DNA of 63,042 bases, the filler included, from Folioceros fuciformis (taxonomy: Eukaryota), in NCBI GenBank assembly GCA_049999805.1. It is 6 parts of 6 records of this genome, joined end to end, with 100 filler letters (N's around TTAATTAATTAA, not from the genome) between each part and the next. Parts side by side here need not be neighbours in the genome. Positions count along the whole stretch, not along the records: positions 39,356 to 52,422 come from JBNGIO010005217.1; 5 more parts are not named here. One strand, given 5' to 3'. The position numbers and the translations under genes were made by a program. Under the pieces are notes generated by a model. The model did not search any database. It was not told the origin of the DNA and saw only the letters and a list, made by a program, of their open reading frames with translations. Shown here piece by piece: positions 7,138 to 57,281 of this stretch. Position 1 is the stretch's first letter; each line of letters starts with the position of its first letter.

Positions 7138-7191
7138 TGGCACACTCAGTGGATGAAGCTAAAGTGCAGAATCAAGTCGTGAGTGGTGCCA
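7138..7191 (+). other. Conserved 3'-UTR stem-loop with GGATGAAGC core (copy 1 of 5)
   Basis: TGGCACACTCA / TGAGTGGTGCCA arms enclose GTGGATGAAGCT...AGTCG. Confidence 0.6.
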
Positions 7192-7758: not shown

Positions 7759-7870
7759 TACAGGGGCAATCTAAGCATCAGTCACAAGAGGGAGATGTTT
7801 GAGCTGGGCGCTCAAATGCAGCGTGCGCTTTTAAGGCTCTTTGTTTTAACCTCCGCAGGTTAAGAGGGAG

Positions 7871-8050: not shown

Positions 8051-9172
8051 TAGGTTTTTGGGCGATAGCCAATCTCAAGTGAAGACAATCATTGTGCGCA
8101 CCAAGAGATTGTGGGGCCTAAAGATGCTGCAGAAGACTTAGTAGATCAAAATTGCTTGAGGGAGGCTTTAGTGAGTGTGGCTAGGAGGTGCGCAAGGCAC
8201 TGCAAGATTGAAGTTGCCCAGATAATTGCAAACACCGTCAATGGCTGTAGGAAATGGCACCAAACAGCAAGCATTGGGTGAGGAATGCAAGGAGGATTAA
8301 TGTGGTGGAAAAAATCCGGGGACACCCAAGGGCTTTCCTCTAGCGGCCACACCTATCCCGTTGTCGTGTAGTCTAGCAGGTTTTGTTCCCTCGAAGGAGG
8401 GCCTGTCCCAGTTGTGCGTGTGAACGACTCAACTCGTACCTCTCTTCTACCACGATCCTCGCGAGCCTGAATACACCTCCTGCCTGCCAACCACGCCTCT
8501 GCTGCCGGCGACTCACTCCGGTAGGACACCCACGTTCCTCACTCTCTTCCCAGGTTACTTCCTTGTGTCCAGTCCAACACTTCCTCCCTTGCTCTCGTCT
8601 TTTCTTCTCCTCGATCTAATCCTCTTGGACTAGCCTCCCCCTCTCAACTCAACTCCCTCAACTCCTCGACTCCATACCCACCTGACTTCGTTCACGAGGA
8701 GGACCACTGATGCGGTGGTAGCGAAGACCTCCAGTCAGCTCGCGCTGAGTCGAAGACCCGGGCCCTTCTCGACAAACTCACCCAGGTCGGACACCACAAG
8801 TGTGCGTGTGAAACACGGCACCTCACATCCACGCGTCTGGGCCGTCACAATCCCCACCAAGCTACCAGACACTGCAGACAACGCAGCCGGTAGGAGCGCA
8901 CTCGTTGGAACACGAACAAGTGTGCTCAGGCTTGGAGAGAAACAGGGAACGGCCACTTTATCTCTTGAGCCCTATGACTCTTATAGAGTTCCTAGCTACT
9001 GTCGGTTGGGGTGGTTGATCGGGTAGGCAGCCATTGATGGTCTCTCTCACCTGCCACAGTGCTTAAGCGCATTAAACAATGTCTTTAAACGCTTAAACTA
9101 CCCCCTCTACCACGTCTATCCTAACTACCCAACTCTATTGGGGACGCTTCGGTGGTTCGAATGGGCAGGTCA
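8051..9172. repeat. Unclassified repeat, probably the LTR or UTR of another retroelement; it truncates the MET1 fragment
   Basis: No credible ORF; pyrimidine tracts; ends ...GGTCA where MET1 similarity stops. Confidence 0.35.
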
Positions 9173-10837
9173 GAATGGCAATCTTCGCATCCTTTTCCTT
9201 GCTTGTTTCTTCACACGCTAGACACCTACCGTCACCGCGTGCCAACTTTTCAGTTGGGAGGCGAAGAAAACATCCCTTTCCAGCGGAATATAGAGCTCGG
9301 CAGAAAAATTGAACAGGAAGACCACTCTGTTCTCTTTCTTTGGCTAGGGCCGTATCTGCTTCATCGAGCTTGGCATTGTCTTTCCTGTTGGCATGTCCCC
9401 ACGGTCGCTTCCTGATCTCAACAGCGAGGGTTCCTGAGGTGTCCTCTATTTCAACATCCATGCACTCCTGCACCAAAAACAGCTCCCGATCGTCAGCAGC
9501 ATTGCCGAGTACAGTGTTCATGCCCCGTTCCAGAATCCTCCCGTGAATCATGTGCAGACCCTTCGTTGTTTCATACAAGTACTCGACAAGGAGAATGACA
9601 GACTGATCCTGCCCGCTCCCATCTACGAGGACAGCGGCCCCAGCACATATCTCTTCGTCGTTGTAACGAGCTTTCTGGTACAGGAGAAGCTTCGAGCTCG
9701 GCACACTCTCCGGCTCCCCCATCCATGTCAATGGTTTCGAACCTCTGGTTTCTTTTGTCTTCCACCTTTTGGGCACTATGGGCTTCACCTTGATGTCGCT
9801 AGAAGGCTGAAACACCGTATCCTCCTCAGACTCACTACCGTCCTCTTCGTCTACTTCATCGTTCTCCTCCACACACACCTGATCTGCTACCTTCCCGTCC
9901 TCCTCAGTATCAAGTTCCATCAGTTCCAATCTCTTGTAGTAGGAGCTCCAGATCCGATTGACAAGGTCGGTGGTTGTAGCCCGCATGGGTTTCTGCTTCT
10001 TGACATCAGGCCCCAGATAAGCCCTGGGATTCAAGTTTCTCCCCTTTTTGACAATGATGGTCTTCTTCTTGGACACTGACAGCTTGGTGTGATGCCTCTG
10101 TTCCATCTTGCTGGCCAGGCCAGAAATAAATGCACAGTTCTTAATCCTGGGATCAGGAAATTCTTCAAACTGCTGCAAAATGATTTGGCCATGGACGACA
10201 ACATATCTCTCCATGTCCGCGACCTTGGAAGAGATGAAGGTTTTGGCATCTGTCGACTGCTCAGCGAGCTTCTTAATGACATCGAGGAAGAATAAGCGAG
10301 AGACCCTCAACTCTTCCTTCAACATGGTGATGATTTTGATGGTCAACTCAGCAGTCCTCAGTTTAGGACTGTACCAGAGCAAATACTGCTGAGAAGGCTT
10401 TCCGAGCTGGTACCAAGCCCCATCTGTCCGTATGGAAATTGACAGATACTGTGAACCAAACTCGATCACCCATTCTTTCACTGCACTCAAGTAAAGAGGA
10501 ATACCCGATGCAGCTGACTCTGATGCACCAACGTCAAAGTATGAACCGTCATCCTCAGTCATCAGTCCAGACCCAAAAATCTCGACATCTGTTTCGGTAC
10601 CGGCAAGCATGGGGAGAAGCTCCAAGGATATGAGCCAAGAATCAGAGTTGTACAGTGCCCAATCGTGCAGCATGCGACGGGGCAGGTCCTCTGGAAGGAG
10701 CTCAGCTACGTCGTCCTCCAAGATGAGGTACTCATCCACCTCGTCCTACTTTGGTTTATAGTAGGCAGGCAGAGGATAATCAGCTGCAATCTCATCCTCA
10801 TTTATCTTAATATACGGCTTGCTCTTCCTCTTGCTCA
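9173..10837 (-). pseudogene. MET1: DNA (cytosine-5)-methyltransferase 1 fragment: RFTS (DNMT1-RFD) domain, acidic linker and BAH domain; no catalytic domain in window
   Basis: EDEIAADYPLPAYYK, PRRMLHDWALYNSD, LELLPM, IFGSG, YLSAVKEWVIEFG, SIRTDGAWY.LGKPS, YVVVHGQIILQQF, KPMRATTTDLVNRIW, TVLGNAADDRELFL, FFCRALY; in-frame TAG at 10746-10748; runs into the gap at its 5' side. Confidence 0.93.
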
Positions 10838-14208: not shown

Positions 14209-17200
14209 GTAAGGCCATGTTCCTTTTACTGTGTGCCAAAAGCAGGAGGGTAATGACTGACATGTAGATTGTGTTTGTGTGTATCGTAGGACACAAGTAG
14301 ATAGGAAGTGTAGGAAAGTCTGTCAGTTGAGGCTGCAATCTGTAAAACCTAAATTATAAGGGGGTTTTTGAGATCAGAGGACATAGGCTCTCACCCCTCC
14401 CACACACTCCATGTCAGTTGTTACCTTCCAAGTAGGTGGCTGAAGTCTTGAAGTCCAAGCGATTCCATGTGCAATCTGTGCTTCAGCTTAGGCAGCGCTT
14501 TTGTCAAGATATCGGCTGTGTTCTCAGCAGTGGGAACATATGCCAATTGGATAACTCCTCTTGCAACTGTGTCTCTAATATAATGGTGCTTGATCTCGAA
14601 GTGTTTCGTCCTTGCATGAAATCTTGGATTGGCGACCAAGGCAATTGCGGAAATGTTGTCACAGCGGAGGATTGTGGGTTCCAGCTGCTCAACATGAAGA
14701 TCCTTAAGATAAGCACGCTCCCACTCAGCCTCCTTTGCAGAATGAATAAGAGAGATGTATTCTGCTTCAGTGGAAGACAACGCAATTGACTGCTGTTTCT
14801 TGCAAGACCAACTGGTTCACTGCAGCACCAGCTAATAGGAAGCAGTATGTGGAAAGACTCTTCCTAGAGTCAGAGTCTGAAGCCCAATTAGCGTCCGTGT
14901 ATGCAGATAATTGAAGACCTGAAGGTGACCCAACTTGATAGAAGAGTCCAATTGTCATGGAACCCTTGAGATAGCGGTAAATCCGCTTCACAGCTGCCCA
15001 ATGCACACGTCCAGGCTTCCCCATGAATTGAGATACAGCACTAACTAAGTATGAGATGTCTAGCCTGGTCCTATTAGAAATGAAGATTAAGTAGCCTACT
15101 GCATGCCTGTAAGGTACGTTCTCCATATCAGCAATCTCCATAACAGCAATCAGCAGATGTGGCACATTGGTCCACAGTTAACTTGACTCCCACAGAGCCT
15201 GGTGTCGAAACTAGACGTGCTTGATCAAGTTGAAACCTCTTTAGAATCTCAGCCAGGTATTTCTTTTGATGAATCACGATCAGACCTGCGTCTCTGTGAC
15301 GTAGAACCTGAACACCTAGGCAGAATTTTAACTCTCCCACATCCTTCATCTCAAACTTAGTGCTAAGGAGATTTTTAAGGGTGGCTAAGATGGATGTGTC
15401 TGTGCAGGCAAAGATACAATCATCTACATAAATGGCTAAGATGCAAAAGGCTGAACCATCTACAAGGTAGTATATAGAAGAGTTTGCAGCACTTTGAACA
15501 AAACCGAGCTTCTTGAGATGAGTATCCAACCTTTTGTTCCAAAGCATGGTGCTTTGCTTTAAGCCTTAGAGGGCCTTAAGGAGTTTAAGTAACTTGTTGG
15601 GCCATTGCTTGTGAACATAACCTTGTGGCTGCTCCATGTATATCTCCTCTTCAATTTCACCATGTAAAAATGTTGTACAAACGTCCATTTGGTGCAGTTC
15701 TAAGTTGAGCTCAGCAGCAAGAGCAAGGATAATTCTAATACTCTAAGCTCTGACTACAGGAGAAAAAGTCTCCTGGTAGTCAAGGCCAGCAACTTGACTG
15801 AATCCACGAGCACAAAGTCGAGCCTTGTAGCGGGCGATTTCACCATCAGCATTCACCTTTGTTTTAAAAACCCATTTGCAGCTAACTGGTTTCCTCCCTT
15901 CTGGCAAGTCTGTAAGTATCCAAGTATTGTTCTTAATGATGGATTAATATTCCTCCTCTACTGCAGCTTGCTAGTGATGAGCATCAGGTCCAGAATAAGC
16001 TTCATCCATAGAGGCAGGTTCAAGATGGAGAGGAGCACTTCCAGGGATTGCTATATGAGCTGAGGGTTTATGCCGAAAATCAAAAGACTCATAAGGTGGC
16101 TCCTGCTAGTGATCCCAAGGAATTCGGGCTCGCAAAGTATAACGAGGAAGAGGCGCAGCCTCGACAAATAGTAAGGCCTCCTCCTCAGAATCTATAGTAG
16201 TAACTTGGGATTCTTGAAGCGTAGGTAGGTTAGGTTGCAAGTCATTGTCTAATGGTGGGATTGGATATGGAATTGCATCAACATGCTCATCAATAAGATC
16301 AGGAGGGTGATCAAAAGGGTCAGGATGGTCTAGTGGATCTGGAAGTTGCACATAAGGTAGCTGATCGGGTGCAGGATCAGCAGTGCTGGGAAAGGTAGTT
16401 TGAGGAGTGGCAAATATGTCTGTTGTGGATGATTCGTCATTTGATATATCAGAATCAGAAGAAGGGTGAATGCCTGCGTCTTGGGAAACTGAGGTCAACA
16501 GCTCCTTAAAGACAACACTCCTAGCAAGAACAGGGGTAAGAGATGCAGGGTCAATCAGTTTGTATGCCTTGGCTTCATCCCCATAACCTACAAAAATCAA
16601 AGCTCGTGATCTATGATCAAGTTTCTGACGCTTCTTAGGTGGGATGTAGGCGTGTGCAGGAGAACCGAATACCCTGAAGTGCATGATACTGGGCTTACGT
16701 CCCCAAAACATCTCAAAAGGAGTTTTACCTAGAAGGGAAGTTGTGAGAAGGCGGTTGAGGATGTAAGTGGCTGTGGTGAGGGCCTCTACCCAGTACTCTA
16801 TTGGAAGTGAAGCCCAACTAAGCATGCTACGGGTCATGCCCATAAGGGTTTGATTCTTTCTTTCAGCAACCCCATTCTGCTGGGGAGTGTAAGCAACTGT
16901 CAGTTGTTGTAAGACACCATGATCTTGGAGAAAGACATCAAAGGTATTGTTGCAGAACTCTGTTCCATTGTCAGTACGTAAGCATTTGAGAAAACAGCCA
17001 GACTATCTTTGAGCCATGAAGAACCACTCTTTAAAACAGGGAAAGGTCTCACTTTTACGAGACATAGTATACGTCCAGGTAAAACGAATAAAATCATTTG
17101 TTATTGTAAGGTAGTATAAAGCTCCTCCTAAGGATTGTGTTTGCAGTTTACCAGAGATGTCGGCATGCACTAGATCTAACAGCCCTAAAGTTCTGTAGGC

Positions 17201-25310: not shown

Positions 25311-25710
25311 TTTTCTAAGAGGCTTATCTACCATGTGGTCTCCACACATCTTTATGACACAAACCTCTGCAACTCAACTGCTATGTGATAATATGTCTGC
25401 TATAGCCCTTGTGGCTAATCCACGATTCCATGCAAGGACAAAGCACATAGAGCTTTATCACCACTACATTAGGGACGTGGTGGAGAGAGGTGTGGCTAAG
25501 GTGGAGTATGTAAGCACAGATGAAAATACAACAAACCTACTGACTAAAGGGCTTTCTAAGGTCAAGCACTACAGGCATCTTACCTCTATGGGCTTAAGGG
25601 TGTTTGCTATGCCGGTACAAGAGAGTACAGCATAATGTGTGTTCTACTGACAGGAAGTGAATTAAGTGGTTTACTACAGGCCTGACCTTCCTGTCCAGCA
25701 CACAACCCAT

Positions 25711-25763
25711 GAGGATAGCTCAGTGGATGAAGCAACCTGCATATTCAGTCGTGAACTGTTCTC
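25711..25763 (+). other. Conserved 3'-UTR stem-loop with GGATGAAGC core (copy 2)
   Basis: GAGGATAGCTCA / TGAACTGTTCTC arms enclose GTGGATGAAGCA...AGTCG. Confidence 0.6.
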
Positions 25764-25834
25764 TACATCAACGAAAAGCAAAGAAAAGCAAAACTTCACA
25801 GCAGTGACTTACCTCTCTCAGGCAGACAAGGGAC

Positions 25835-26270
25835 TTAGTCATCACTAGCTTCAGGCACACCGCCGACTACTCCAGTATATCCCAGCATGTTCAGTTCCTT
25901 CACAAGATGCTGTATTTCACACTCTAATTGTGGAAACATGGTTGGATCCCGTGGTGGGAACTTGGCGACCAAGTCTCGAAGCTCCAAGACCCGACACTTT
26001 GTGGCCTTGATTGCTTCTTTGACCTCCTCGCACTTCTAAGCAGTCTGAAGCAGACGACACACCAAGTTCCTATCTGACTGTGTAGGCCACTCCACAGGCT
26101 TCTTCGATACTTGAGTCTTGCTAGGCTCAACAGAGTTACTATGCTGCTGTGACGACTCCTTCCTTGGATCCTTCTGACAACTCAAGCCGCAACCCTCTTG
26201 CGTGCCATTTCTTCCTGCACCAGAAGACGGAAGACTGAGAATTCCCTCTGCAGTGTGTGGTTGTTCTTAG
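25835..26270 (-). pseudogene. Decayed antisense accessory ORF of copia family A
   Basis: VEWPTQSDRNLVCRLLQTA*KCEEVKEAIKATKCRVLELRDLVAKFPPRDPTMFPQLECEIQHLVKELNMLGYTGVVG aligns with ORF 34437-35060. Confidence 0.75.
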
Positions 26271-26680
26271 CCCTGGTACCGCGAGAGCAAGGCACCACAA
26301 CCAATCTTCAGCTTGCCCTGAGTCTTCACGTCTATCCTTGTCTGAAGTTGGATCATCCGTCATGCTCCCTGCATGATTTTCACACTTGTGCCACACAACA
26401 ACTTCGCACGACTGCTTCATCATGAGGGGGTGACGGGGTTTATAGCCTGTTAGGGTTTAAGCACTTACTTTAACCTCGTAAGGTTAAGAGGGGGTGTTAA
26501 GGTTATTTAGATAACCATGGGTTAGATTAACCTAACTCGGTTAAACACGTGACTTTTGGGTTTAACAAACTTGACACTATAAAAGCTACAATTTTGTATT
26601 TATTGAATTAAATTCTTTTTGCTGCATTGTCTCAAGTATTCTTTGTCTAAATAATCCTTGAACAAATGCATAAAATAACA

Positions 26681-34107: not shown

Positions 34108-34436
34108 TGACACGAATTAAAGAACACACACAAACATGTACTCAACAGAATGATTGATTAAATTAATGAACAAAATTGTGTCTTATATATTGTGTTAAAT
34201 ATAAACCCTAATGTGAGGTTAACTAACCAAGAGTAACAAACTCTAACACCCCCTCTTAACCGAACAGGTTAACGGAACGGGGTTCTTAAATAAAACGGGG
34301 TCATAGGGTTACGCTCCCGTCATCGCTGTGGTCTTCAGGCGTAAAGGCCTAAACAGGCAAGCGGAGCGTGAGTGACTGTTGAGCTGAAAACCGAACGATC
34401 TCGAGCGTAAGCGAGGAGAATGAGAGCCGTCTAGCT

Positions 34437-35060
34437 GTGCGGGAAGCCATGGAGATAAATACTGAGCTTGCGCTCACAGTCCTATGTGTCGTCATAGCTA
34501 CCAGCATCGCCACAGGCTGCAAGGTGGAGGCTTGGCGCAAGCAAAACCGAGCTATCAAAGATGGCGTTGCTGCCACCGCCAAGGTTGGGTCAGACCCGTT
34601 CCTGAACAGAATGGTCAACCCCAGCCCGTATAGTGCTGTAGACAGAGCTCGGCACCCGGATGGCTGGCCTACTCAGGCAGACCGCAACTTGGTAGGACAC
34701 TTGTCACTGACGCTGAAGAAGATGGAGGAGCTCGACGGCATCCTGCAGTCTGCTAAGTTGAGATCGATAGAGCTGGAAGACTTGTGCAGGACGATCCCTC
34801 CTCATGAGCTAAGAATGTTCCCACTCACGGTGCCTGAGATAAAGGCCATGGTCGGCGAGTTGGAGAAGATGGGGTTCGTAGGCACCCTAGGAGACATCGG
34901 GCCTGGTGTAGGTCCCACGTACAACCCATATCCACATCACCACCTGCAGGGCCTCCTGTTGGACCAACTTGGCATCCAGAGTCACCATCTCAGTCTGGTA
35001 AGCAGCTCAGCAGTATGTTTGTTTGAAGGGATCACAGAACCAGCTCACGACAAGATGTGA
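34437..35060 (+). CDS. Intact antisense accessory ORF (about 203-207 aa) of copia family A: N-terminal TM-like helix and conserved helical domain
   Basis: Hydrophobic LALTVLCVVIATSIATG; WPTQADRNLV...ELEKMGFVG domain conserved in two other elements; ATG at 34449. Confidence 0.75.
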   Translation: MREAMEINTELALTVLCVVIATSIATGCKVEAWRKQNRAIKDGVAATAKVGSDPFLNRMVNPSPYSAVDRARHPDGWPTQADRNLVGHLSLTLKKMEELDGILQSAKLRSIELEDLCRTIPPHELRMFPLTVPEIKAMVGELEKMGFVGTLGDIGPGVGPTYNPYPHHHLQGLLLDQLGIQSHHLSLVSSSAVCLFEGITEPAHDKM

Positions 35061-35092
35061 CGTGACAGCTTCATCCACTGAATTGGGTCTGT
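35034..35092 (-). other. Conserved 3'-UTR stem-loop with GGATGAAGC core (copy 3)
   Basis: ACAGACCCAATTCA / TGAGCTGGTTCTGT arms enclose GTGGATGAAGCT...TGTCG. Confidence 0.6.
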
Positions 35093-41136: not shown

Positions 41137-42594
41137 AGCAGAAGCTCTCACACATTAGTACGAACCAAAGCTGACAAAGTGCTGTTAGCATCTAAGAATA
41201 AATTTCTAGGGAAAGCAAAGCATTCACCTGGTGTTGGTGTTGCCAAGCCAGGGCAAGGTAGAAGAACTGGAGCCTGCAATTGGTGTGGGGTTCTAGGGCA
41301 TTGGGAACGCGAATGAAGGAAGAAGAAATGTGGAGAACTGAGAAAAGCCAAGAAGCCCCATAGAGCGGTTGAGGCACACTCAATTTCCAAGGACACGTCT
41401 TCACAGGCCTCATCTTCCAGCAAGCAACCCGTGGTAATGACCGTTTGCCATTCCACCACAGTCTGTGAACCAGACTCTTAGTATCTGGATTCGGGTGCCA
41501 CATCCAATATATGCCACAATTGACACTTGCTCAATGATTTCACTCCAACACACGCTAATGAAAAGGTGCTATTGGGAGATGAGCTTACCCGAACAGGTTT
41601 GAAGATCCTTGGCACAGGATCTTGCACTTTTCGACTTGAAGATGGCTTTGCCCTTCGCCTAGATAATGTACTCTACGTTCCTAGCATGGCCAAGCATCTT
41701 CTCTCTGTCAGTCAGTTGATGAAGCTACAACAGTATGATATGTCATTCACCTTTGCTAGTTGTTTTCTTTCACATAAGGGTGCCCATGATTCCGTCACTC
41801 GAGGTCTCTTGGTGCATGACTTGTATAGGCTCAACATATGTTGTCAGCCCGCTAAAAGTGCTTTTTTGGTTGCAAGGACACAATCGGCTTTAGCACAACT
41901 GTGGCACGCTCGTTTGGGACATGCCAATAAAGATAAGCTTATAAAGATGTCTAATTTGGAATGTTACAGAGAACCACAGCCTAAATGTTTCAAGGAACTT
42001 CCCTTATGTGATTCTTGTATCATCACCAAGCAGAAAGAGATTCCCTTCCCGTTTGCTGTTGCGCATCGTACCTCTCATGTTCTGGACCTTGTACACACAG
42101 ACATATCAGGAAAAATTCATGTTCCTTCTTTGGGAGGCTCCCAATATTACCTCACACTTACGGACGACTATAGTAGGTACTCTACGACCTTTCCCCTAAA
42201 GCGGAAATCAGATACTTTCCCTGTATTTCAAGAGTGGCTCACCATGGTACAACGCCAGACAAGTCGACTCCTTCGTTGCTTGAGGTCTGATAACGGCACT
42301 GAGTTCGTCAATAACCTCTTTGATTAGTATTTGTCCGACCAAGGCATCACTCGGCAACTTATCATTCCCTACACTCAGCAAAAGAGCGGTGTTGCTGAGA
42401 GACAAAATCAGACTTTATCAGGTGTGACCCGCAGTATGCTTCAATGGTCAGGATTGGATAAGGCTTACTGGGCTGAGGCGGTCGTGACTGCTACATACAT
42501 ACTCAACCGTCTTCTTACAAGTGCAGTTGAAGGCCGAACTCCTTTTGAAGTGATATGGCAACGTCGTCCTAGCCTTCTCCACTTGCGTGTATTC

Positions 42595-45500
42595 TGAAGC
42601 TATATATATATATATATATAGTACAGTCATTAGGTTAGTTAAGTCAAGTATAAAATAAGCCCTAGGTTGACAGGTTCTTATGGTTATAACCTGTAACTGC
42701 TTCCAGGCACCTACACACATAAGAGTGTGGCCGTGCTCACGTTAATGTAATGAATCCAAAACCATTCATGGTATCAGAGCATGTGTTTGCGGTGATTCTG
42801 CTCTGCTTGCAATTGTGCCATATTCGCTAATGCTATCTTCATTGTGGAGCGTGTGAGGATGGTATTCTTGGTCAACGATTCTTGGCCAAGAGGCGCGCCA
42901 GCTGCAGTCTGGGAGATGGTCTGTACAGACTATTCTTCCAGGCGTAAGGATTGACAGGAGCGATGCTTTCAATCCTGTATCGTGCCAACCAGGCTATCCC
43001 CTATTCTGCTCTTTAGCCAAGCATGGCACACTACGACCTGCACACAAATGCGCTTCTGGAGCAGTCCTTGGAGTAATGTCGTGCAGTCCAATAGTGCACC
43101 ACGCCTGGCCTACGCAGAAGGGAGTGTCTGGCGAGGCGCGCGCTAAGGCTGGCTGCTATTGCAGAGTATGAATGCATGAGAGAAACTATCAGGAACAGCT
43201 TGCACCTGGAAACAGGTGGCAACAGGAATGGTTTAGAATATGCATTATTTTGGAGTTGATGGCGACAAACCTACTGCAAGGAGTGCCTGCAGGTGAAGAC
43301 TATGAATGGAGCCAAATATATGTGTCTGGCCTTTACCTGTGGAACACAATGTCGGCCCCTTCAACCTCCACTTTTGAAATTAGCCTACCTGCAACACCTG
43401 AAAATGTTTTCCAGGGTATCCTTTTCCAGCTAGATAGCCTTTTTAGACAACAACCTCTCACACCTACACTTAGCTACATTTATGACTATGCATCTTATGT
43501 AGTCCATAAAATTCATTTTGAGTACTCCTTCTCACAAACCCTTAATCTCCTAGTCTCCCTTGAAGTAGAAGGTCTGCTAGATTTCAAAACATCCTGCAAG
43601 GCCAGATTCCATCTAGTCTAGCTGTCAGCCTGTCCAGCCAAGAGTCATGGCAACTCAGTAGCCCCCAACACCTGTTGCCTTGGCCAAAGAAGACAAGTTC
43701 GATGGAGAGAGCTTCAACCTCTGGAAGTTCAGAATGGAGGAATTGCTGAAATCCAGGAATCTATAGGAGCAGCAGTCATTAAGCTTGAACCACCCGCAAC
43801 CGCACCAGCCGACGAGATTGTAGCATGGAAGGCTGCCAACCAGCAAGCAAGGAGCTCGCTCACAATGAGTGTGAAGAGCTCCAATATTGCCACTTTGATG
43901 GGCGACATTACATCTGCAACCACATTGTGGCAACAACTGTTAGAAGTTTATGATGCCACGGATCTCATGCTCAAAACCCACACGCTTAAGTCCTTGGTGG
44001 GATTGAGGATGTCGGAGATAGACAACGTGGCAGAGTATGTGCTTACCTAGAGGAGCTGGCAGACCAAGTTCCTAGCATTAGGGCTCAAACTAGAAGAAGA
44101 AGTGATGGCGGTTATTCTTCTGTCACAATTGCCTGAAAGTTGGACAAATGTTGTCCAGTCCCTGCAGAGTGTAGCTGCCATCACGGTTAATCGTGTCATC
44201 TCCACGATGCTTACCGAGGAGAATCGACGGAAGATGGCTTCATCTTCCATAGCTATAGGGGACAAAGCCTTGTTGACCAACAAGTTTGGTTCAAGCAGAG
44301 GCAGGGGCAGAGGAAAGCCCATGTTCAGAGGCAAAGGACATGACCGAGGTTTCCCAACTCGTTCGACCTCATTTAACCCAAGCAGACCAAAGCCATCATG
44401 TGGCTATTGTGGTATCCCAAACCACACATGGGAGGTCTACAGGAAACGGTTGGCAAATGAGTCAGGTGGCAGGCACACTGGTGGAAACCTAGCAGTCACT
44501 ATGAAGAAGTACTCGAAGGCCTTTACAGCAGCTGTGCATTCTGAACCAGCTAAAATCTCACATGCAGGAAGTTCTATGGCATTGGTAGTTACCTGTTTTG
44601 CAACCAAGGCAAAGCATGCATGGTACATCGACTCCGAAGCCTCGCAGCACATCACACCACATCATTCCTACTTCACTAGCCTGCAACCAATGCCAAGTGA
44701 GAGATATGTGTGTCTAGGAGACAACTCCAAGCATAGGATAGAAGGTCAAGGTACGATCAAGCTGGATCTTGAACCAGATCCGTACCTGGAGATTCTAGAT
44801 GTACTATACGTGCCAGGTTTAGCCAAAAACCTGGTGTCGGTGAGAAAGATTGATGAACCGGGCTGCTTTATATGCTTTGGCAGTAGAAGGTGTGTAGTAG
44901 AGACACCTGAAGGTAAGCTAATGGCCACTGGAGGGCTTAGAGGTGATGACCTCTATCACTTGGACGTTAAGAAGGATCAGGCCAACGTTGCATCAGCACA
45001 CATGGTCAGACCTTCCCTTACAGATTTGTGGCATCTTAGATTGGGCCACTTAAATTTCCAGAAGCTTGTAAGAATGCACCAAAACAAGCTAGTAGAAGGT
45101 CTAAAATTGGATACCTTCTCGGATTTCGGAGTGTGTGATGCATACGTGATTGGGAAGCACCACAAGTCAGCATTCCCAACAGAACCAGCTGAGAGAGCGA
45201 CCAGGGTTCTTGGTCTGGTGCACAGTGACCTGTGTGGGCCTCTGCCCACTTCTCTTGGAGGCAAGTCCTATTTTATTACCTTCATAGATGACTTTTCACG
45301 CTTTACTAGTGGTCTACAACATAAGACTCAAATCTGCAACCCTGGAATGCTTCAAAGAGTACAAGGCTTGGGCAGAAAGGTAGAATGAACAATCACTGAA
45401 GGCTCTCCATACCGACAATGGGGGAGAGTACATATTTGGTGAGTTTCAAACATTTTGTTTGAAGCATGGCATATCTAGGCAGCTGACCAATGCACGGACT

Positions 45501-48428
45501 CCACAACAAAACGGAGTGGCTGAAAACAAGAACAAGGCACTTGAGACTTCAGCATCAAGCATGCTAGCATATGCAGGCCTTCCCAAAAGCTACTGGGCAG
45601 AGGCAGTTGCTTATGCAACTTATATTCAGAACTGGATTGAGCACTCATCTATGCAAGGGAGAACCCCGTTTGAAGTCTGAACTGGAGTGAAACAAGACAT
45701 CTCTCATATGAGAGTCTTTGGATCCCCTATGTATGTGCATGTCCACAAGGAGCTCAGGAAGAAGTTCGATCCAAAATCGACATCTTGCATATTTATCAGT
45801 TTTACAAACAGGATAAAAGGATATAAAGTGATAGACCTACGTACCATGAAGGTGATGCATTCAAGGGATGTTATTTTTGTTGAAGGAATAAAATCCCATG
45901 ATTCAGTGGGAGCTGCTGTCCAAGACCAAGAGTCGGATGAAGAGCCGGAAATCGGCTCCTACAAGGATGTAGCCCCAATGGCTGCAAATCCTACACTACA
46001 GCCTGTACCTATAGTTGTAGCACCAGCAGCGCCACAGCAAGTCCTTGCAACACCAGTTGTACAAACACCTGTCAGGCCAGTTAGCAGCACAGAAAGTGAG
46101 CCAATCGTTTTTGGAGACTTTTATGTGGAAGGTGTCGTCTCACCTGGAGACATATTTGCTACACCTTCGAACTACCAGCCTGTGTCTGCATCTGGGATGG
46201 TACAGCGAATGAAGATGGGAGTTAGTGTTCCTACTCCACCAAGGGACAGACCAGTCCGTACAACAGCTGGAAAAATCGACCTGTATAAAGTGCATGATTG
46301 GAGGCACCCGAAGAATACAAGTCATTCAAAGTCAAACCTTACCTACTGCCTAGCAGCCTCTGTGGAGCACTTCGAACCTCAAACGTATGAAGAAGCCCTT
46401 TCCTGCCCAGATGCTGAACATTGGAAGAAGGCCATAGCATCGAAACTGAATTCCTTGAAGGAAAATGAAACTTGGCAACTTACTGAATTGCCAGCTGGCA
46501 GGAAGGTTGTAGGCAGCAAATGGGTCTTCAAGATCACATTGAAAGCTGATGGTAGCATTGAGAGGTACAAGGGAAGAGTCGTGGCTAAAGGCTATTCACA
46601 AATTGCAGGAATTGATTACACAGATACCTTTAGCCCTGTTGTAAAAATGAGCACACTTAGACTCTTCCTGGTACTAGCTGCTGTCCATGATTATGAGCTG
46701 GAGCAATTGGATGTGACAACAGCCTTTCTTTATGGCAGCCTGCATGAGGAGATATATATGGAGCCACCAGCTGGTCTTGTAGCACAAGACAAAAATCGTC
46801 AGTATGTGTGCAAATTGAGAAAAACCTTGTATGGACTGAAGCAAAGTCCACGTGCATGGTTTGCACGAATTCATAGCTTCCTAGTGTCACATGGATATCT
46901 GCCCATCCATGCTGACAGCAATGTGTATGTGAAACAAGGAAATGGCAAGGAGTTTCCGGCTCTAGCTATATATGTGGATGACCTTATCATCATGTCCAAC
47001 AATTTAAGCATGATTGAAGAGCTAAAAGGGCAGTTGCGGTCAGCATTCAAGATGACAGATGCAGGAGCACTAGCTTTATGCCTGGGTATGCAGATCAGCA
47101 GAGATACGAAATGAAGGAGAATATTCATGCATTAGTCAAAGTATATACGCCATATCCTTGCACGGTTTCAGATGACAAACTGTAAGCCAATATCAACTCC
47201 CCTTGAGCAGAATGTAAAGTACAAGGCACAAGTGGGGGAAGTGGAGCTTACTGCTGAGGAAGATCGCCTGATGACAAAGTTTCCATATGCATCCCTCAGC
47301 GGCAGTGTGATGTACCTGATGTTGGGGACACGACCAGATCTTGCATATGCTGTTGGTATGCTGTCACAGATCCTTTCAAATCCAGCGATGGCTCACTGGC
47401 AAGCAATGCGAAGAGGGTTTAGGTACATCAAAGCAACTGAGGACTGGGGCTTACTGTACAGCGCCAATGCAGCGAGAGCTCTTACATTAACAGCATACAG
47501 CGACGCTGATTGGGCAGGTGATCAGGACACAAGGCGTAGCATCTCCAGCTACGTTCTTCTGCTGGCAGGTAGTGCCATATCCTGGAGCAGTAAGCGTCAG
47601 CCCACCATAGCACTCTCCTCCACGGAGGCTGAGTACAAATCTTTAACTGAAGCTTGCAAGGAGATTATCTGGGCTGTACGAGCGCTCGTTGAGCTTGGGT
47701 CCCAAGCAGCTACCAATTAGCTTGAAGTGTGATAATTAGAGTGCAATCGCACTCTCAGAATCCAAGGTACCACGCAAGGACCAAACACCTGGAAGTACAG
47801 CACCACTTCATTAGGGAGCAGGTGTCAAGCGGGCTGCTCCAGATGGTTTGCTCTCCAATGGATGTGATGACAGCGGATGTTCTCACCAAGGCCTTGAGCA
47901 AGGCGAAGCACCACCGACACATCCAAGGTATGGGAATTCGAACCGCATCAAGAGGGCACGTCTGGACAGCGGATCCAGTTGAAGCGAGCAGTAGCCGCCA
48001 AGTAGGCAGCGGCGACGGAGAGCGGTCTTTACCAACAAGTAGCGCAGGCAGCTTGAGCGGATCAGCATCTCACGGCAGTGGCCTGGACGAATGCGGCCAC
48101 GAAGAAGATGAAGATTGAAATCACTTTTTGATAGTGTTTCTTTGGTGGCAAGTTTCTTGTAGGTGTTTCAATTTCTAGTTGAAGTTTCTTAGGGCGTCTA
48201 TAGGAATAGTTATCAAAATTATATAAACTATCCTAACCTAACTCCTGAGTGGGAGTGAAGCAATATATATATATACAGTAGTACAGTCATTAGGTTAGTT
48301 AAGTCAAGTATAGAATAAACCCTAGGTTGACGGGTTCTTATGGTTATAACTTGTAACCGCTTCCAGGCACCCGCACACATAAGAGTGTGGCCGTGCTCAC
48401 GTTAATGTAATGAATCCAAAACCATTCA
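42595..48428 (+). mobile_element. Full-length decayed Ty1/copia element 11, nested in the integrase of element 10
   Basis: LTRs 42595-42768 and 48256-48428 (several mismatches); TSD TATTC; PBS TGGTATCAGAGC 42769-42780; PPT TGAGTGGGAG 48246-48255; gag ATG 43647; pol fragments 44102-48118. Confidence 0.96.
43172..43621 (+). CDS. Extra sense ORF (149 aa) upstream of gag in element 11
   Basis: Open frame in the 870-bp leader; stop 25 nt before gag ATG. Confidence 0.5.
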   Translation: MHERNYQEQLAPGNRWQQEWFRICIILELMATNLLQGVPAGEDYEWSQIYVSGLYLWNTMSAPSTSTFEISLPATPENVFQGILFQLDSLFRQQPLTPTLSYIYDYASYVVHKIHFEYSFSQTLNLLVSLEVEGLLDFKTSCKARFHLV

Positions 48429-49278
48429 TATTCGGCTCTCCAGCCTACGCATATGTACCTGCAGAATTGCGAAAGAAGCTTCAAGACAGAGCTAAGCCTC
48501 TTATTTTTGTTGGTTATGGAGAAGAAACGAATGCTTACAAATTATATGATCCTTTTTTGAGATCCTCTATTTTTGCACGCAGTGTTACCTTCAAGGAGCT
48601 TGTCAAGCCAGATCAGTCTCACTTTGCGGACACTTCTGCTGTCCTTGATGATTCGCTTGCTGACGACTTTAACACTACAGCCTCTACGTATCCTCAAGAT
48701 ATCTATGTCGTTCCGTCTTCAGGGGTGCTCCTCTTTTTGCAGCTAGTGGTTCAAGGGGTGGCACTTCGTCATCCACACAGGCTGGACAGCCTGTACATCT
48801 TGCACATGTTCTAGTACCACATGTTCAGTTTCAGGCCCCTGTACAACTTGCTCAGCCGTTGGATGATGATACAAAACCCCTTGCTGCTACTGAAGACATT
48901 GAGGAACTCATACATGTCGAGGGCATAGGTCAAGAGGATCCTGCTCCTGTTCTTGAAAACCAACTTGCTGTGTCTGAATTTTCTGATGTTGATAAGGATC
49001 TCCCTATTGTTGAAGATCTACCTGAGATCTCAGCTCCTGCCCTTGAGGAGCGTAGATACACCAGCAAGACTCGCAACCCTAGAGACCAGTGGCATGACAA
49101 GCCATATGAATCCATAGACTTTAGGCTTCCTAAGTCAGCTAGAATGTCAGTCTACTCATCTGTAATCCTATCCTCTACTGTTGAACCTCTTGTTGAGCCC
49201 AGAACTTATCAAGAGGCCATAAATGGTAAAAACAAACAACACTAGATTCCTTCTATCCAAGATGAGTATAACTCACTC

Positions 49279-50790
49279 ATGAAGAATGAGACTTGGGAGT
49301 TATGCCCGTTACCTGCTGGCCGTAAGGCTGTGAGCTGCAAATGGGTTTTCAAACATAAACTTAATGCACATGGACAGATTGCACGTCACAAATCTCGTTT
49401 GGTAGCACGTGGTTTCTCACAAGTTGCTGGCGTTGATTTTAATGAAACATTTAGCCCTGTAGTCAAAACGCAATCTATTAGAATGATTCTAGCTTTGGCT
49501 GCTGCACGAGATTGGGACCTAGAGCAGATGGATGTATCTACTGCATTTCTCTACGGGGAATTAGAAGAAGAAATATATTTGGTCCAACCTGAAGGCTTTG
49601 AGGATCGCGAGCACCCTGACTGGGTCTGCAAGCTGAAGAAAACTCTGTATGGGCTCAAACAAAGTGCCCGTGAGTGGTATAAATGTATAGACAAATACCT
49701 GAGATCAATTGGTTTCCTTCAAAATCCTGCAGATGCTAACGTCTACATGTATACCAAAGGTGGGCATATCGTCATCCTGGCTCTCTACGTAGATGATGCC
49801 ATCCTCGCGTCAAACAACAAAGAGATACTGGAGTGGGTAAAGGCAATGCTACATAAGGAATACGACATGAAGGACATTGGACAACTTACATTTGCCCTAG
49901 GTGTCCAGTTGCTTAGGGACAGGGCCAATAGAACCCTTGTCTTCCATCAAACAAAATATATCAATGAGACCTTACGTCGTTTCAACCTAGATCAAGCCAA
50001 ACTAGTCAGTACCCCTGGCAGCATTGGAGTCAAGCTTACTTCTGACCAATCCCCCCATGATGAGCATGAGAAGGCAGCTATGTCTGAAGTCCCTTATCGT
50101 CACGTTGTGGGCTGCTTAAACTACATAAGTTGTTGGACTAGGCCTGACATCCAGCATGCTGTTAGCTGCGTGTCTCAGTTCCTGGAAAACCCAGGTAAGG
50201 AGCACTGGGGAGCAGTGAAGCGCATCCTAGGATATTTAAGAGGAACTTCAACCTATGGATTATGCTTTAGAGGGAAAGGACAAGATATCACCTTGGTGGG
50301 CTATGCTGATGTAGACTGGGCTACTAATCCTGAGAGCCGTCGAAGTCTCTCAGCATACTGCTTCTTCCTTTCAGATGTTGTGGTAAACTGGAGCTCTAAG
50401 AGACAATCGTTAGTTGCTCTCTCATCTACGGAGGCTGAGTATAAAGCCCTTACAGCCTCAGCCAAGGAGGCCAAGTGGGAAAGGACATTCCTTGCTGCCT
50501 TGTCCTTCAAGCAACCTGCACCCACTGCCATATACTGTGATAATCAATCGACAATAGCCCTGGTAGGAAACCCTCGATTTCATGCCCGGACTAAGCACAT
50601 AGAAATCCAGCACCATTTTGTGCGTCATTTTGTTGAAAGGAAATTTGTCAAGGTCGAGTACATCCCTACTGACCTCAACACGGTAGACCTGCTTACTAAA
50701 ATTCTGCCTACTACTAAGCACAACTTTCACATGGAAGCTATGGGTCTCATCAACTACTTAGCTGTAATCCCTTCCAGCTCTGAACAGTGA
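49279..50790 (+). CDS. Copia RT-RNase H of element 10 (503 aa open stretch)
   Basis: KSRLVARGF, QMDVSTAFLYG, LYVDD, SSTEAEY, CDNQS, TKHIEIQHHF. Confidence 0.95.
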   Translation: MKNETWELCPLPAGRKAVSCKWVFKHKLNAHGQIARHKSRLVARGFSQVAGVDFNETFSPVVKTQSIRMILALAAARDWDLEQMDVSTAFLYGELEEEIYLVQPEGFEDREHPDWVCKLKKTLYGLKQSAREWYKCIDKYLRSIGFLQNPADANVYMYTKGGHIVILALYVDDAILASNNKEILEWVKAMLHKEYDMKDIGQLTFALGVQLLRDRANRTLVFHQTKYINETLRRFNLDQAKLVSTPGSIGVKLTSDQSPHDEHEKAAMSEVPYRHVVGCLNYISCWTRPDIQHAVSCVSQFLENPGKEHWGAVKRILGYLRGTSTYGLCFRGKGQDITLVGYADVDWATNPESRRSLSAYCFFLSDVVVNWSSKRQSLVALSSTEAEYKALTASAKEAKWERTFLAALSFKQPAPTAIYCDNQSTIALVGNPRFHARTKHIEIQHHFVRHFVERKFVKVEYIPTDLNTVDLLTKILPTTKHNFHMEAMGLINYLAVIPSSSEQ

Positions 50791-50883
50791 TGTGCAGAAG
50801 CTAGATGTTACAGAACCTGCATACAGACTAAGTTTTTCAGTTAGCAGGTCTAGATAGGTGTTTGTTTTTCATAAACAAATCAA

Positions 50884-50933
50884 CAGACAGTGGCGGATGA
50901 AGCTAACCATCCACATCCAATCACCACTTGCTG
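50884..50933 (+). other. Conserved 3'-UTR stem-loop with GGATGAAGC core (copy 4)
   Basis: AGTGG / CCACT arms enclose CGGATGAAGCT...CATCCAATCA. Confidence 0.55.
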
Positions 50934-51290
50934 CTGCTACTAATCTGGGATGTCAGCTGCATCGCCTGCTTGCCGTCTCCGTGCCCATTTTTTGCTCTTG
51001 TTGCCAGTATTTGGTCATGAGGAATGCTGCTATTGCAAGCGCGCAAGCGGACAACACCAAGTGGAGCATGCTCGTCATCTTCGGGCTATGCCTACTGCAT
51101 TACTTTGTCGTGTCGTGGTTAAGAGGGTGTGTTGAACCCGGTTAGGGTCCCCTGATAACCATGTCACTTGGACTTTAATTAAACATATAAGTTAGGTCAA
51201 GTAACCAACCCCAAGAATGAAAAGTCACTTAGTTATTTACGATTTTGTACTTAAAGACTTTTTCCTTTAATTAAATGTATTGTTGTTTCA

Positions 51291-54964: not shown

Positions 54965-57281
54965 CTCCACACTAACCATGATCGCTCGTTATATAAACAT
55001 AATCCTACGGGGACTATCTTAACACACCCCCTTAACCACGACATTGGTTAGGAGATAGGCGTTAAACGCAACTAAAGACAAGGACACGAAGGTGCGAAAA
55101 TGGCTGGCACACTTGGTTGCAGCTGCAAAGCTGCCCTTGCTAGAGGACAAGTAATTCCGGCTGATTAGATAGAGCAGTCGAGCTTCATCCGGCCAGACAG
55201 TCCAAATATCACTCCACGCTAACACTGTAGAGAAGAGCTGGGCAGGTAGGAGTTGTAGGCTACCAAGCCCAAGGCTTCTGTATGAAAATCGTGCTTGAGC
55301 GTAGGTAGACTTTTTGTGAGGACGTCTGCCATATTTAGCTCTGTAGGGATATGCTCAATGCTAACCACCTTCCACTGCACTGAGTGCCTCACAAAGTGAT
55401 GGTGGATTTCTATGTGCTTCGTGCATGCATGGAAGCGGGGATTCCCAACCAGGGCAATAGTGGACATGTTGTCACAATAGATGGTGGTAGGGATCTTCTA
55501 TGGAAAGTTTAAGCCAGCAAGGAAAGTGCGTTCCCACTCGGCCTCTTTTGCTAAATCTGTTAGTGCTTTATATTCCGCTTCCATTGAGGAGAGTGCTACT
55601 AAGACCTGTTTCTTTGAGCTCCAGTTGATAGCTGCTCCAGACAGGAGGAAGCAATAAGCAGAGATGCTGCATCTTTGATCTGAATCTGTCGCCCAGTCCG
55701 CATCACAATAACCCTGCAAGCTAACAGTCTCATTTGTGCCTCGGAAGCAGAGTCCAAGTGTGGAAGTACTCTTAAGGTAACGCACAATTCTTTTGACTGC
55801 AACCCAGTGAGTATGGCCTGGATCTTCAAGGAATTGTGAAACAGCACTGATCGAGTGCTGAATGTCTGACCGTGTCCAACAACTAATGTAGTTGAGGCAC
55901 CCAACAGCGTGCCTATAGGGCACCATGCTCATAAGCTCACGATCAACCTCATCTTGAGGGCTCTGCATAGAGGTAAGTTTCAAACCAACGCTGCCGAGAG
56001 TGCTTACTGACTTTGCATCCTGCAGATTAAGTCTTTGGAGAGTCTCACCAATGTACTTGGTCTGGTGCAGGATGAGAGTATGATTAGTCATGTCACGGAT
56101 GAGCTGCACACCTAAAACAAAGGTAAGAGAACCGATATCCTTCATGTCATAGCGCTTGTGGAGCATCCCTTTTACCCAGTCTAACAACTCCTAATTGTTT
56201 GATGCAAAGATCGCGTCATCGACATAAAGAGCCAAGATAACCATGTATCCTCCTTTGTTGTAGACGTAGACGTTTGCATCTGCAGGGTTTTGGATGAACC
56301 CAATAGATTTCAAGTATTTGTCAATTCACTTGTACCATTCTCATGCACTCTATTTGAGGCCGTACAACGTCTTCTTAAGCTTGCAGACCCAAGTAGGATG
56401 CTCAGGGTCCACAAAGCTTTTAGGCTGTTCCATGTACATGTCTTCCTCGAGATCCCCGTAGAGGAAAGCCGTTGAAACATTCATTTGTTCCAAGTCCCAG
56501 TCCCTTGCTGCAGCCAGGGCCAGCATCATGCGGATCGATTGCGTTTTCACAACAGGGCTGAAAGTTTCATGGAAGTCCACTCCAACCACTTGAGAAAAAC
56601 CTCGGGCTACAAGACGACTCTTGTACCTAGCAATCTCTCCTTGTGCATTCAGCTTATGTTTGAAGATCCATTTACAGCTCACAGCTTTGCGTCTAGCAGG
56701 TAAAGGACACAGTTCCCATGTTTCATTCTTCATGAGGGAATAGTATTCATCTTGAATGGAAGGGATCCAGTGATGCTTGTCCTTGCCGTTTATAGCCTCC
56801 TTATATGAGCGTGGTTCAGCAGGGTGAACAGTGCTGGTGGAGAAGGCCTCACAGAGTCGAGCTGAACGAGGCTACCAAAAATCTTCAGGTTGATAAGGTC
56901 GTTCACTCCATTGATCTAGTGGAGGACGCAACCTGATGGGGTATCTTCGTGCTTCCACAACAGGTTCGAGAACAGGAGATGCAGTCACAGCTGGTTCAGG
57001 CTCCAGATAAGTGAGAACCTATTCAGCAGCCTGCTCATGTTCATAAATAGGTGAGAGGGATTGATCTCTGAAATCTAAATGCTGAACGTGCTCAAAATCA
57101 TCCACTGCAGGATCAGCTGTTGGTATATCAGCTTGAGAAGTTGCATCATCTGTCTCATCTACACCAGGTGTAGCATCACTAATCTGTTCTACAGGTAAGT
57201 GTGCAACTGGCTGAACAACTAACTGATGTCGAGCTGAGGTTGGCTGTGACTGTGAGTCAATAGTATGGGCAGGTGATGGAG
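54965..57281 (-). mobile_element. Ty1/copia element 14 (family B), 3' part: RT-RNase H 55219-56800, PPT, truncated LTR with its 5' terminus at 55024
   Basis: RT very similar to element 10 (VVKTQSIRM.LALAAARDWDLEQM, CLNYISCWTR). Confidence 0.92.
55156..55197 (-). other. Conserved 3'-UTR stem-loop with GGATGAAGC core (copy 5)
   Basis: TCTGGC / GCCGGA arms enclose CGGATGAAGCT...TATCTAATCA. Confidence 0.55.

Follow-up and report, generated by a model that had tools for sequence, protein, structure and literature searches.

The DNA analysed here, a window of 63,042 nt from Folioceros fuciformis, consists of six contigs joined by 100-nt spacers. The contigs are dense with nested, mostly broken Ty1/copia elements, among which we located 11 RNase H ends; the corresponding copia 3′ ends are labelled A1, A2, A3, B1, B2, C, D, E, F, G and H. 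Their assignment to Ty1/copia, elements with the order gag-protease-integrase-RT-RNase H, follows from the Pfam domains RVT_2, Retrotran_gag_2 and gag_pre-integrs, together with a polypurine tract (PPT) and an LTR starting with TG. In element B1, the pol end at 49246-50790 (+) encodes reverse transcriptase (RT; RVT_2, E = 3e-74) and RNase H and finishes with a stop codon at 50788-50790. The 3′ UTR of 339 nt (50791-51129) ends in a PPT, with the LTR beginning at 51130. Element B2 lies on the minus strand. Its RT-RNase H region (55219-56805) is broken by stops and frameshifts, and its 3′ UTR (55025-55218) spans 194 nt, again with a PPT at its end and an LTR from 55024. These distances from pol stop to LTR bear out the short family-B 3′ UTRs described in the initial annotation. 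The pol ends of B1 and B2 share 75% amino acid and 70% nucleotide identity, whereas families A and B are 52-57% identical in RT-RNase H; the closest proteins to B1, which are protein matches without DNA context, show 73-78% identity.

Several other features of the window can be noted here. Element H (42589-48429, +) sits inside the integrase region of B1, flanked by a 5-bp target duplication and with LTRs that are 94% identical, and this nested insertion accounts for the split in B1. Element D is nearly intact, with LTRs 98% identical and a frame of 1352 aa. An intron-less MET1/DNMT1 fragment of 536 aa with RFTS and BAH domains occupies 9135-10745 (−). It is 42-47% identical to its best flowering-plant matches and 60% identical to one further protein, is cut by a contig end and is followed directly by LTR-like sequence; it could be either a host gene or a captured copy. 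The identities point to a host that probably belongs to the streptophytes but not to the flowering plants.

Downstream of pol, B1 and B2 share a 30-nt core (50894-50923 (+) and 55191-55162 (−), respectively) that begins 104 nt after the pol stop in B1 and 28 nt after it in B2. In the predicted fold, an outer stem (P1) is followed by a 5-nt RRUCR bulge that faces one or two unpaired bases on the 5′ side; an inner stem (P2), in which GGAUG would pair with YAUYY, then leads through an AA internal loop to an apical stem-loop, which is weak. In the B1 copy (50889-50928, +), P1 is formed by 50889-50893 with 50924-50928 and is followed by the unpaired C50894. Within the remainder of the core (50895-50923), P2 joins 50895-50899 to 50914-50918, enclosing the AA internal loop and the weak apical stem-loop, and the 3′ bulge AAUCA occupies 50919-50923. 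The B2 copy (55156-55197, −) has P1 at 55197-55192 with 55161-55156, the unpaired C55191, and a core at 55190-55162 that includes a P2 with two G-U pairs, an apical stem AGC/GCU with a 6-nt loop, and the same AAUCA bulge. The two sites, with outer arms AGTGG/CCACT in B1 and TCTGGC/GCCGGA in B2, had been proposed in the initial annotation and were confirmed, as was its inner helix, which forms five of five pairs both in B1 (GGAUG/CAUCC) and in B2 (GGAUG/UAUCU). Family A contributes three further copies. That of A1 (7138-7191, +; core 7151-7179) has a P1 of 11 bp with one bulge, that of A2 (35034-35092, −; core 35076-35048) carries the stop codon of an antisense frame inside its core, and that of A3 (25711-25763, +; core 25725-25751) has an apical loop shortened by 2 nt.

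The core is thus present in 5 of the 11 copia 3′ ends, three of family A and two of family B, and nowhere else in the window. The pattern GGATGAAGC-N8..12-ATYHWRTCR, which was derived post hoc from these same copies, gives 5 matches in the window against 0.01 expected from shuffles, with starts at 7151 (+) in A1, 25725 (+) in A3, 35076 (−) in A2, 50895 (+) in B1 and 55190 (−) in B2. All five copies lie on the sense strand, 28-131 nt 3′ of the pol stop (the offsets for A1 and B2 were counted by hand), and core matches are confined to pol-proximal 3′ UTRs, as anticipated when the motif was first noted. The distance from motif to LTR varies from 138 to 800 nt, such that position tracks the pol stop and not the LTR. 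The bare 10-mer is weak on its own, yielding 11 matches at no more than one mismatch versus 5.5 expected. One of its 5 exact matches (15998-16007), inside the pol coding region of element C, is a chance occurrence.

To what extent the hairpin is real can be judged from how its arms have changed. In family B, 24 of 26 cells are paired and four of six P1 pairs have changed on both sides, compared with 27-46% pairing in slid controls. Six pairs have changed on both sides in family A. Shuffle controls for covariation are borderline, at 14-30 of 500, values that by the method used are not probabilities. The cognate 5′ and 3′ arms form the best of 120 pairings, and the duplex of each copy ranks within the best 0.03-6% of 5939 random arm pairs; the 5′ arm of A3 pairs equally well with the 3′ arm of A2 as with its own. 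An anchored stem of at least 3 bp combined with a dG of −8.8 or below, thresholds set from the weakest of the five, is found in every copy; of 81 chance matches to the pattern in viral contigs, not one has both. Short stems are nevertheless common, since four anchored pairs arise in 4% of random arm pairs.

The composition of P2 bears on the strand. Among its 25 cells, 18 are Watson-Crick pairs, 5 are G-U and 2 are unpaired, and the excess of G-U over A-C pairs (5 to 0) favors the sense strand. In A1, A3 and B1, the antisense strand folds just as stably as the sense strand. Isolated family-B hairpins fold with z-scores of −1.8 and −2.2, which become −0.04 and −0.49 in a 131-nt context, and A2 takes another fold in a 149-nt context. 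B1 contains two CAUCC words, of which the minimum-energy fold uses 50908-50912, whereas the register homologous to B2 uses 50914-50918. The apical loop is different in all five copies, with no conserved self-complementary loop, and P1 is offset by one base between families A and B. As judged from its pairing and substitution pattern, the motif is a selected sense-strand RNA hairpin with a copy-specific outer stem and a G-U-tolerant inner stem.

Two other small hairpins are predicted in these UTRs. A palindromic CAGCTG lies in one of them 35-40 nt 3′ of the motif, at 50963-50971 (+) in B1 and 55128-55120 (−) in B2. The second (TAACC ... GGTTA with a 5-6-nt loop) is directly 5′ of the polypurine tract in A1 (7848-7870, +), A2 (34271-34249, −), A3 (26472-26494, +) and B2 (55048-55025, −). 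In B1, the 3′ arm of this pre-PPT hairpin is kept and the local 5′ arm is absent; a complementary word occurs in the apical loop of the B1 motif.

Conservation of the core stands out against the divergence of its surroundings. The cores of B1 and B2 are identical at 21 of 30 bases without gaps, whereas 102 of 149 four-fold degenerate RT sites differ between them (47 identical, 68% different), a contrast with a binomial P of 1.7e-5 for a window that was chosen post hoc. Between B1 and A2, 83 of 105 four-fold sites differ (79%), which is near saturation. Thirteen core columns nonetheless show no change among the five copies, the 5′ nonamer is invariant and followed at nearly fixed spacing, and the core is kept while the flanks of A and B cannot be aligned. 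These substitution patterns show the core to be under purifying selection. The hairpin, kept by two distantly related copia families, is a real RNA motif that had not been catalogued before, although its broad kind is known, and it is represented by five decayed copies in one genome.

A sister copy of B1 is found in contigs from two runs of one sample, possibly the one from which the window derives; the contigs end at 50920 and resume at 50938. Upstream, over the 186 nt that finish at 50920, the sister copy differs from B1 by 10 substitutions and 1 gap, and downstream by 21 substitutions in 273 nt from 50938. Among the changes listed, one falls inside the core, A50923G, which is the family-A base. 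The contig ends lend modest support to the suggestion that the sister copy has an identical core, given that an identical run of 31 nt has a ∼5% chance of arising alone. A deep contig from runs X1 and X2 spans 50636 to 51109, matching the RNase H end and the PPT while skipping the 472 nt between them, with 25 letters on the short side. It perhaps represents an abundant related family with a different UTR, or an artefact.

The three family-A elements also share an antisense ORF. In A2 it occupies 34383-35060 (+) and measures 225 aa from stop to stop, with broken homologues in A1 and A3 (38-40% identity over 73-84 aa; phmmer E-values of 2e-11 for A1 and 9e-18 for A3). The ORF has no Pfam or Atlas match, lies between motif and PPT, and is confined to family A. 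Family-B UTRs lack an A-type ORF by phmmer (E of at least 3), their longest antisense stop-free frames being 54 aa in B1 and 31 aa in B2. The initial annotation had described a second copia family that carries the motif without the antisense gene, and this holds. Because family B keeps the motif without the ORF, the motif is independent of it, again as proposed. Long antisense frames occur as well in the 3′ regions of D (18617-17810, −; 190 and 172 aa) and C (14420-13400, −; 148 aa); no resemblance of these frames to the family-A ORF could be detected. Antisense ORFs between pol and the 3′ LTR are, by the available portion of one report, additional genes of Grande, RIRE2 and Retand (PMC7264820); the likeness there is to the family-A ORF, a neighbor of the motif, and not to the motif.

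A further proposal, that the motif is not constrained by protein coding, stands with respect to pol and to the antisense ORF but carries two caveats. The motif follows the pol stop in all five copies, and the A3 copy has a 2-nt deletion inside it. We rejected frame coupling to pol, as the copies are spread over three frames and stops separate them from pol, and likewise a D-E-A coding frame, whose third codon positions never vary although four-fold sites are saturated. The first caveat is that the A2 antisense frame ends with a stop inside the core, the sole overlap of an antisense frame with the motif. The second is that the core ATG opens a frame M-K-L-x-x-x-I-x-S in four of the five copies.

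This short frame raises the question of whether the hairpin houses a 9-codon micro-ORF 3′ of pol that acts as a translational control element, a reading we regard as improbable. In the ATG frame, codon positions 1 and 2 are where the invariant dinucleotides CT, AT and TC sit, a coincidence that we estimate at about 1 in 9 by chance, and variation at Leu (CTA, CTG, CTA, CTC) and Ser (TCG, TCA) is synonymous. The frame closes at codon 10 in A1 and A2, and A3 retains that TGA out of frame. However, A3 carries a frameshift, the B2 frame already closes at codon 8 and B1 lacks the codon-10 stop, differences that decay of old copies could explain. Moreover, Lys is AAG in all five copies and Ser ends in a purine only, and coding leaves unexplained both the invariant GG 5′ of the ATG and the compensated outer stem.

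The order of events was examined with RT trees, from which 22 of 104 rows with fewer than 250 aligned residues were dropped. Element C is sister to family A (SH-aLRT/bootstrap 98.4/98) within an A+B+C clade (97.9/97), and a tree that unites A with B but leaves C outside is rejected (AU p = 0.016). That test was run on 18 rows, with A3 and G left out, under LG+G4 only; the larger tree gives the same topology. Searches of element C yielded no significant motif copy. Since C nests between A and B, either the motif was present in the A+B+C ancestor and C lost or replaced it, or recombination carried it from one lineage to another, and its absence from an element closer to A than B is implies that it is dispensable or replaceable. 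The proposal that the motif is older than the antisense gene is the simplest by parsimony, although motif-less C leaves the order unproven. With the A-type ORF confined to family A and sited between motif and PPT, the motif most simply came first, and the finding thereby suggests an order of events in family A, in which the antisense gene would have entered between motif and PPT. Element C carries a different predicted hairpin (14421-14330, −) ∼25 nt after its pol stop, with a GGGG/CCCC outer stem and an A-rich 3′ bulge, which is possibly a replacement for the motif and possibly a chance structure.

Covariance-type models were used to look for more copies. A model built from the five cores scores the five copies at 37-44 bits and everything else in the window at 11.4 bits or less. 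The initial annotation had made the shared motif depend on a family-A model finding the family-B copies, and it found one of the two. B1 ranks first among the non-training matches (17.2 bits, E = 0.04; next 11.5 bits), whereas B2 lies in the noise (10.4 bits, E = 3). A family-B model brings no family-A copy above noise, the best being A2 (E = 2.2). We do not take this weak cross-family recovery as a refutation, because each model was trained on two or three sequences and P1 is shifted by one base between families. A possible diverged copy, to be treated as a lead only, comes from outgroup element F (1524-1561, +), in its 3′ UTR ∼110 nt after the pol stop and with no outer stem seen; its 11.4 bits correspond to E = 0.9 across the window and 0.006 in a 421-nt stretch. 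A candidate in D (18443-18410) was rejected at E = 1.2. A relaxed descriptor that matches the F and D UTRs was given no weight, since it was written post hoc and its gap range missed four true copies. The UTRs of E, G and H were covered by whole-window searches.

Beyond the window, metagenome loci were scanned for an RNase H end, and three motif models applied to the best 80 of 460 confirmed copia loci (40-64% identity; 65 of the 80 with at least 300 nt downstream) gave nothing below E = 1.5. None of these best 80 loci placed in the tree belongs to the A/B/C clade, so that absence is shown for distant copia only. A protein scan of viral contigs gave no matches. The motif pattern matched these contigs 57 times, and of 81 loci, including those of a shorter-gap control pattern, none lies beside a copia RT or RNase H. 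Rfam 15 has no match in the window at the gathering threshold, and E-value searches of 50790-51130 and 25640-25860 returned chance matches only (E of at least 0.5), none centered on the core. Our literature search, largely of non-subscription papers and excluding the original ENE survey, found no description of the motif.

Several known RNA classes share features with the motif. It may resemble tRNA arms, a miR166 target site and box C, with the miR166 seed side being variable here; a tRNA origin was rejected for lack of a tRNA gene or an Rfam tRNA match. Hammerhead ribozymes carry CUGANGA, GAAA and UH around three stems. Against this consensus, the motif has G at the second position, GAA in A1 only, no stem III and no Rfam match, and it was therefore rejected as a hammerhead. 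Eukaryotic SECIS elements have an AUGA/GA quartet, then a helix of 11-13 bp before an apical AA. We likewise rejected this class: the motif has AUGA with AA immediately behind it, no GA is conserved on its 3′ strand, and Rfam gives no match.

Closer parallels come from LTR retrotransposons, the nearest in function being the ENE (element for nuclear expression), a triple-helix element that protects RNA from deadenylation. The accessible part of one study describes an ENE in the 3′ UTR of Arabidopsis Evade/Copia93, removal of which lowers RNA stability and transposition, and places ENEs also in other plant and fungal LTR elements (PMC12501189). In all five copies, our motif likewise sits between ORF and 3′ LTR. 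The defining feature of an ENE, however, is there given as internal loops rich in U to which the poly(A) tail binds (PMC12501189), whereas the loops of the motif are AA and RRUCR, with no U tract in ∼40-55 nt; for want of U-rich internal loops, identity with the ENE was rejected. Two facing U runs at ∼50833-50869 (+), upstream of the B1 motif, pass a crude ENE-like U-run descriptor; this match, in 1 of 11 UTRs, is not conserved, and the other 10 UTRs gave none. The RTE of mouse IAP, the MTE of musD, the CTE of MPMV and the RSV direct repeats, all from animal elements, are structured RNAs acting in cis on unspliced retroelement RNA, and are bound by host factors, with NXF1 and RBM15 serving the animal elements, to the extent given in the accessible text (PMC12786077, PMC3856414). 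Covariation in its five copies supports a structure for our motif, which may act in cis in a comparable way. The RSV direct repeat is ∼115 nt, and no Rfam family of this kind or any other matches the motif. The GalEa Conserved Hairpin Site is, by the part of the report available, a short hairpin common to distant copia families with a variable loop (PMC5445492), as is our motif, but it is fungal and consists of a palindromic 9-mer that adjoins the 5′ LTR and replaces the primer-binding site. The present motif is not palindromic, and its location in the 3′ UTR excludes identity with that site. Sireviruses, which are plant copia elements, have a conserved inverted repeat in their non-coding 3′ part that folds back and, in the available portion of its description, flanks the terminal PPT at the 3′ LTR junction (PMC2829016), while our motif is 138-800 nt upstream of the LTR.

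These comparisons suggest what the motif might do. We propose that it is a cis-acting structure on the sense (genomic and messenger) RNA of one Ty1/copia clade, in which the variable outer stem and short inner stem would present two conserved unpaired patches, the AA internal loop and the 5-nt RRUCR bulge, as a putative protein-binding site. Since Gag identity between A2 and B1 is only 42% and yet 13 core columns are unchanged across the five copies, a host RNA-binding protein that evolves slowly would be a likelier partner than Gag. The job of the motif may be to stabilize the intron-less genomic RNA or to aid nuclear export, in the manner of the ENE for Evade and the RTE and MTE for mouse LTR elements; a host factor for stability or export is favored since elements of such a kind are documented in the same position. 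A candidate host-protein-binding stability or export element is the reading we prefer, though we hold it tentatively, at slightly less than even confidence. More speculative, and to our minds rather unlikely, is the broader idea that the ∼40-nt hairpin is a host-protein-binding module, unrelated to the ENE, that forms the plant-lineage counterpart of the retroviral CTE and RTE and that is either old and diverged in outgroups such as F or exchanged among copia lineages without following RT. Whether an LTR retrotransposon is mobile can hinge on structured 3′ UTR elements, and a 40-nt motif with invariant loop bases across silent-site-saturated families is a small candidate for an RNA stability or export signal. 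A CTE/RTE-like module, if true, would offer a minimal handle on the export or stabilization of intron-less LTR-retrotransposon RNA in plants, where, in the accessible text of a 2025 review, the export of LTR-retrotransposon RNA is said never to have been directly studied (PMC12786077).

The same sense-strand structure could instead be read by the element's own Gag/nucleocapsid or reverse transcriptase, for packaging, dimerization or strand transfer in the particle. The structural and selection evidence would apply equally to such a role, the motif occurs once per genomic RNA and outside the LTR, and the RSV direct repeats of the 3′ region are pleiotropic, with a packaging defect among the titles cited in the part of the source available (PMC3856414). 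Gag would also suit as a partner in that the nucleocapsid zinc knuckles of A1, A2 and B1 are alike, those of B1 having been read by eye. Yet the motif offers no conserved self-complementary loop for dimerization, the core is nearly fixed while Gag identity has fallen to 42%, and sister element C does without the motif; we consider a Gag or RT partner unlikely, if still a serious alternative. A function at the level of DNA, either as a host-factor site (an enhancer or an antisense-transcript terminator) or as a hairpin in single-stranded cDNA, has a slim chance of being right. It would suit the invariant 5′ nonamer with its nearly fixed spacing, the A2 antisense frame that ends exactly in the motif, and the matching stability of antisense folds in A1, A3 and B1. 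A double-stranded site, however, needs no compensated flanking stem, the 5:0 bias in P2 points to the sense strand, and family B has no antisense gene to terminate.

Neutral descent or chance, by which the motif would be a remnant of an ancestral UTR with fortuitous stems, draws on the B1 and B2 UTRs being loosely alignable 3′ of the motif and hence homologous, on the modest z-scores of individual folds, and on how common short stems are. Neutrality is nevertheless very improbable, as the core has been kept despite saturated four-fold sites and unalignable A/B flanks, and its stems are copy-specific. Least probable of all is that the motif represents an undescribed class of small ribozymes and processes the element RNA. 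Small ribozymes typically have conserved internal-loop bases between variable stems, and the YGGAUGA of the motif resembles the hammerhead strand CUGAUGA. But four of the five copies have no GAAA strand or stem III, Rfam provides no match, and a genomic RNA cut between pol and the PPT would be destroyed; that ribozymes occur in other retroelements is nonetheless on record in the accessible parts of two reports (PMC4918200, PMC8501958).

One further set of reads covers the B1 3′ end. Run X3 on 50450-51250 shows C>T or G>A at 78 of 108 changed places, a bisulfite-type pattern, and the run could serve for reading methylation across these elements.
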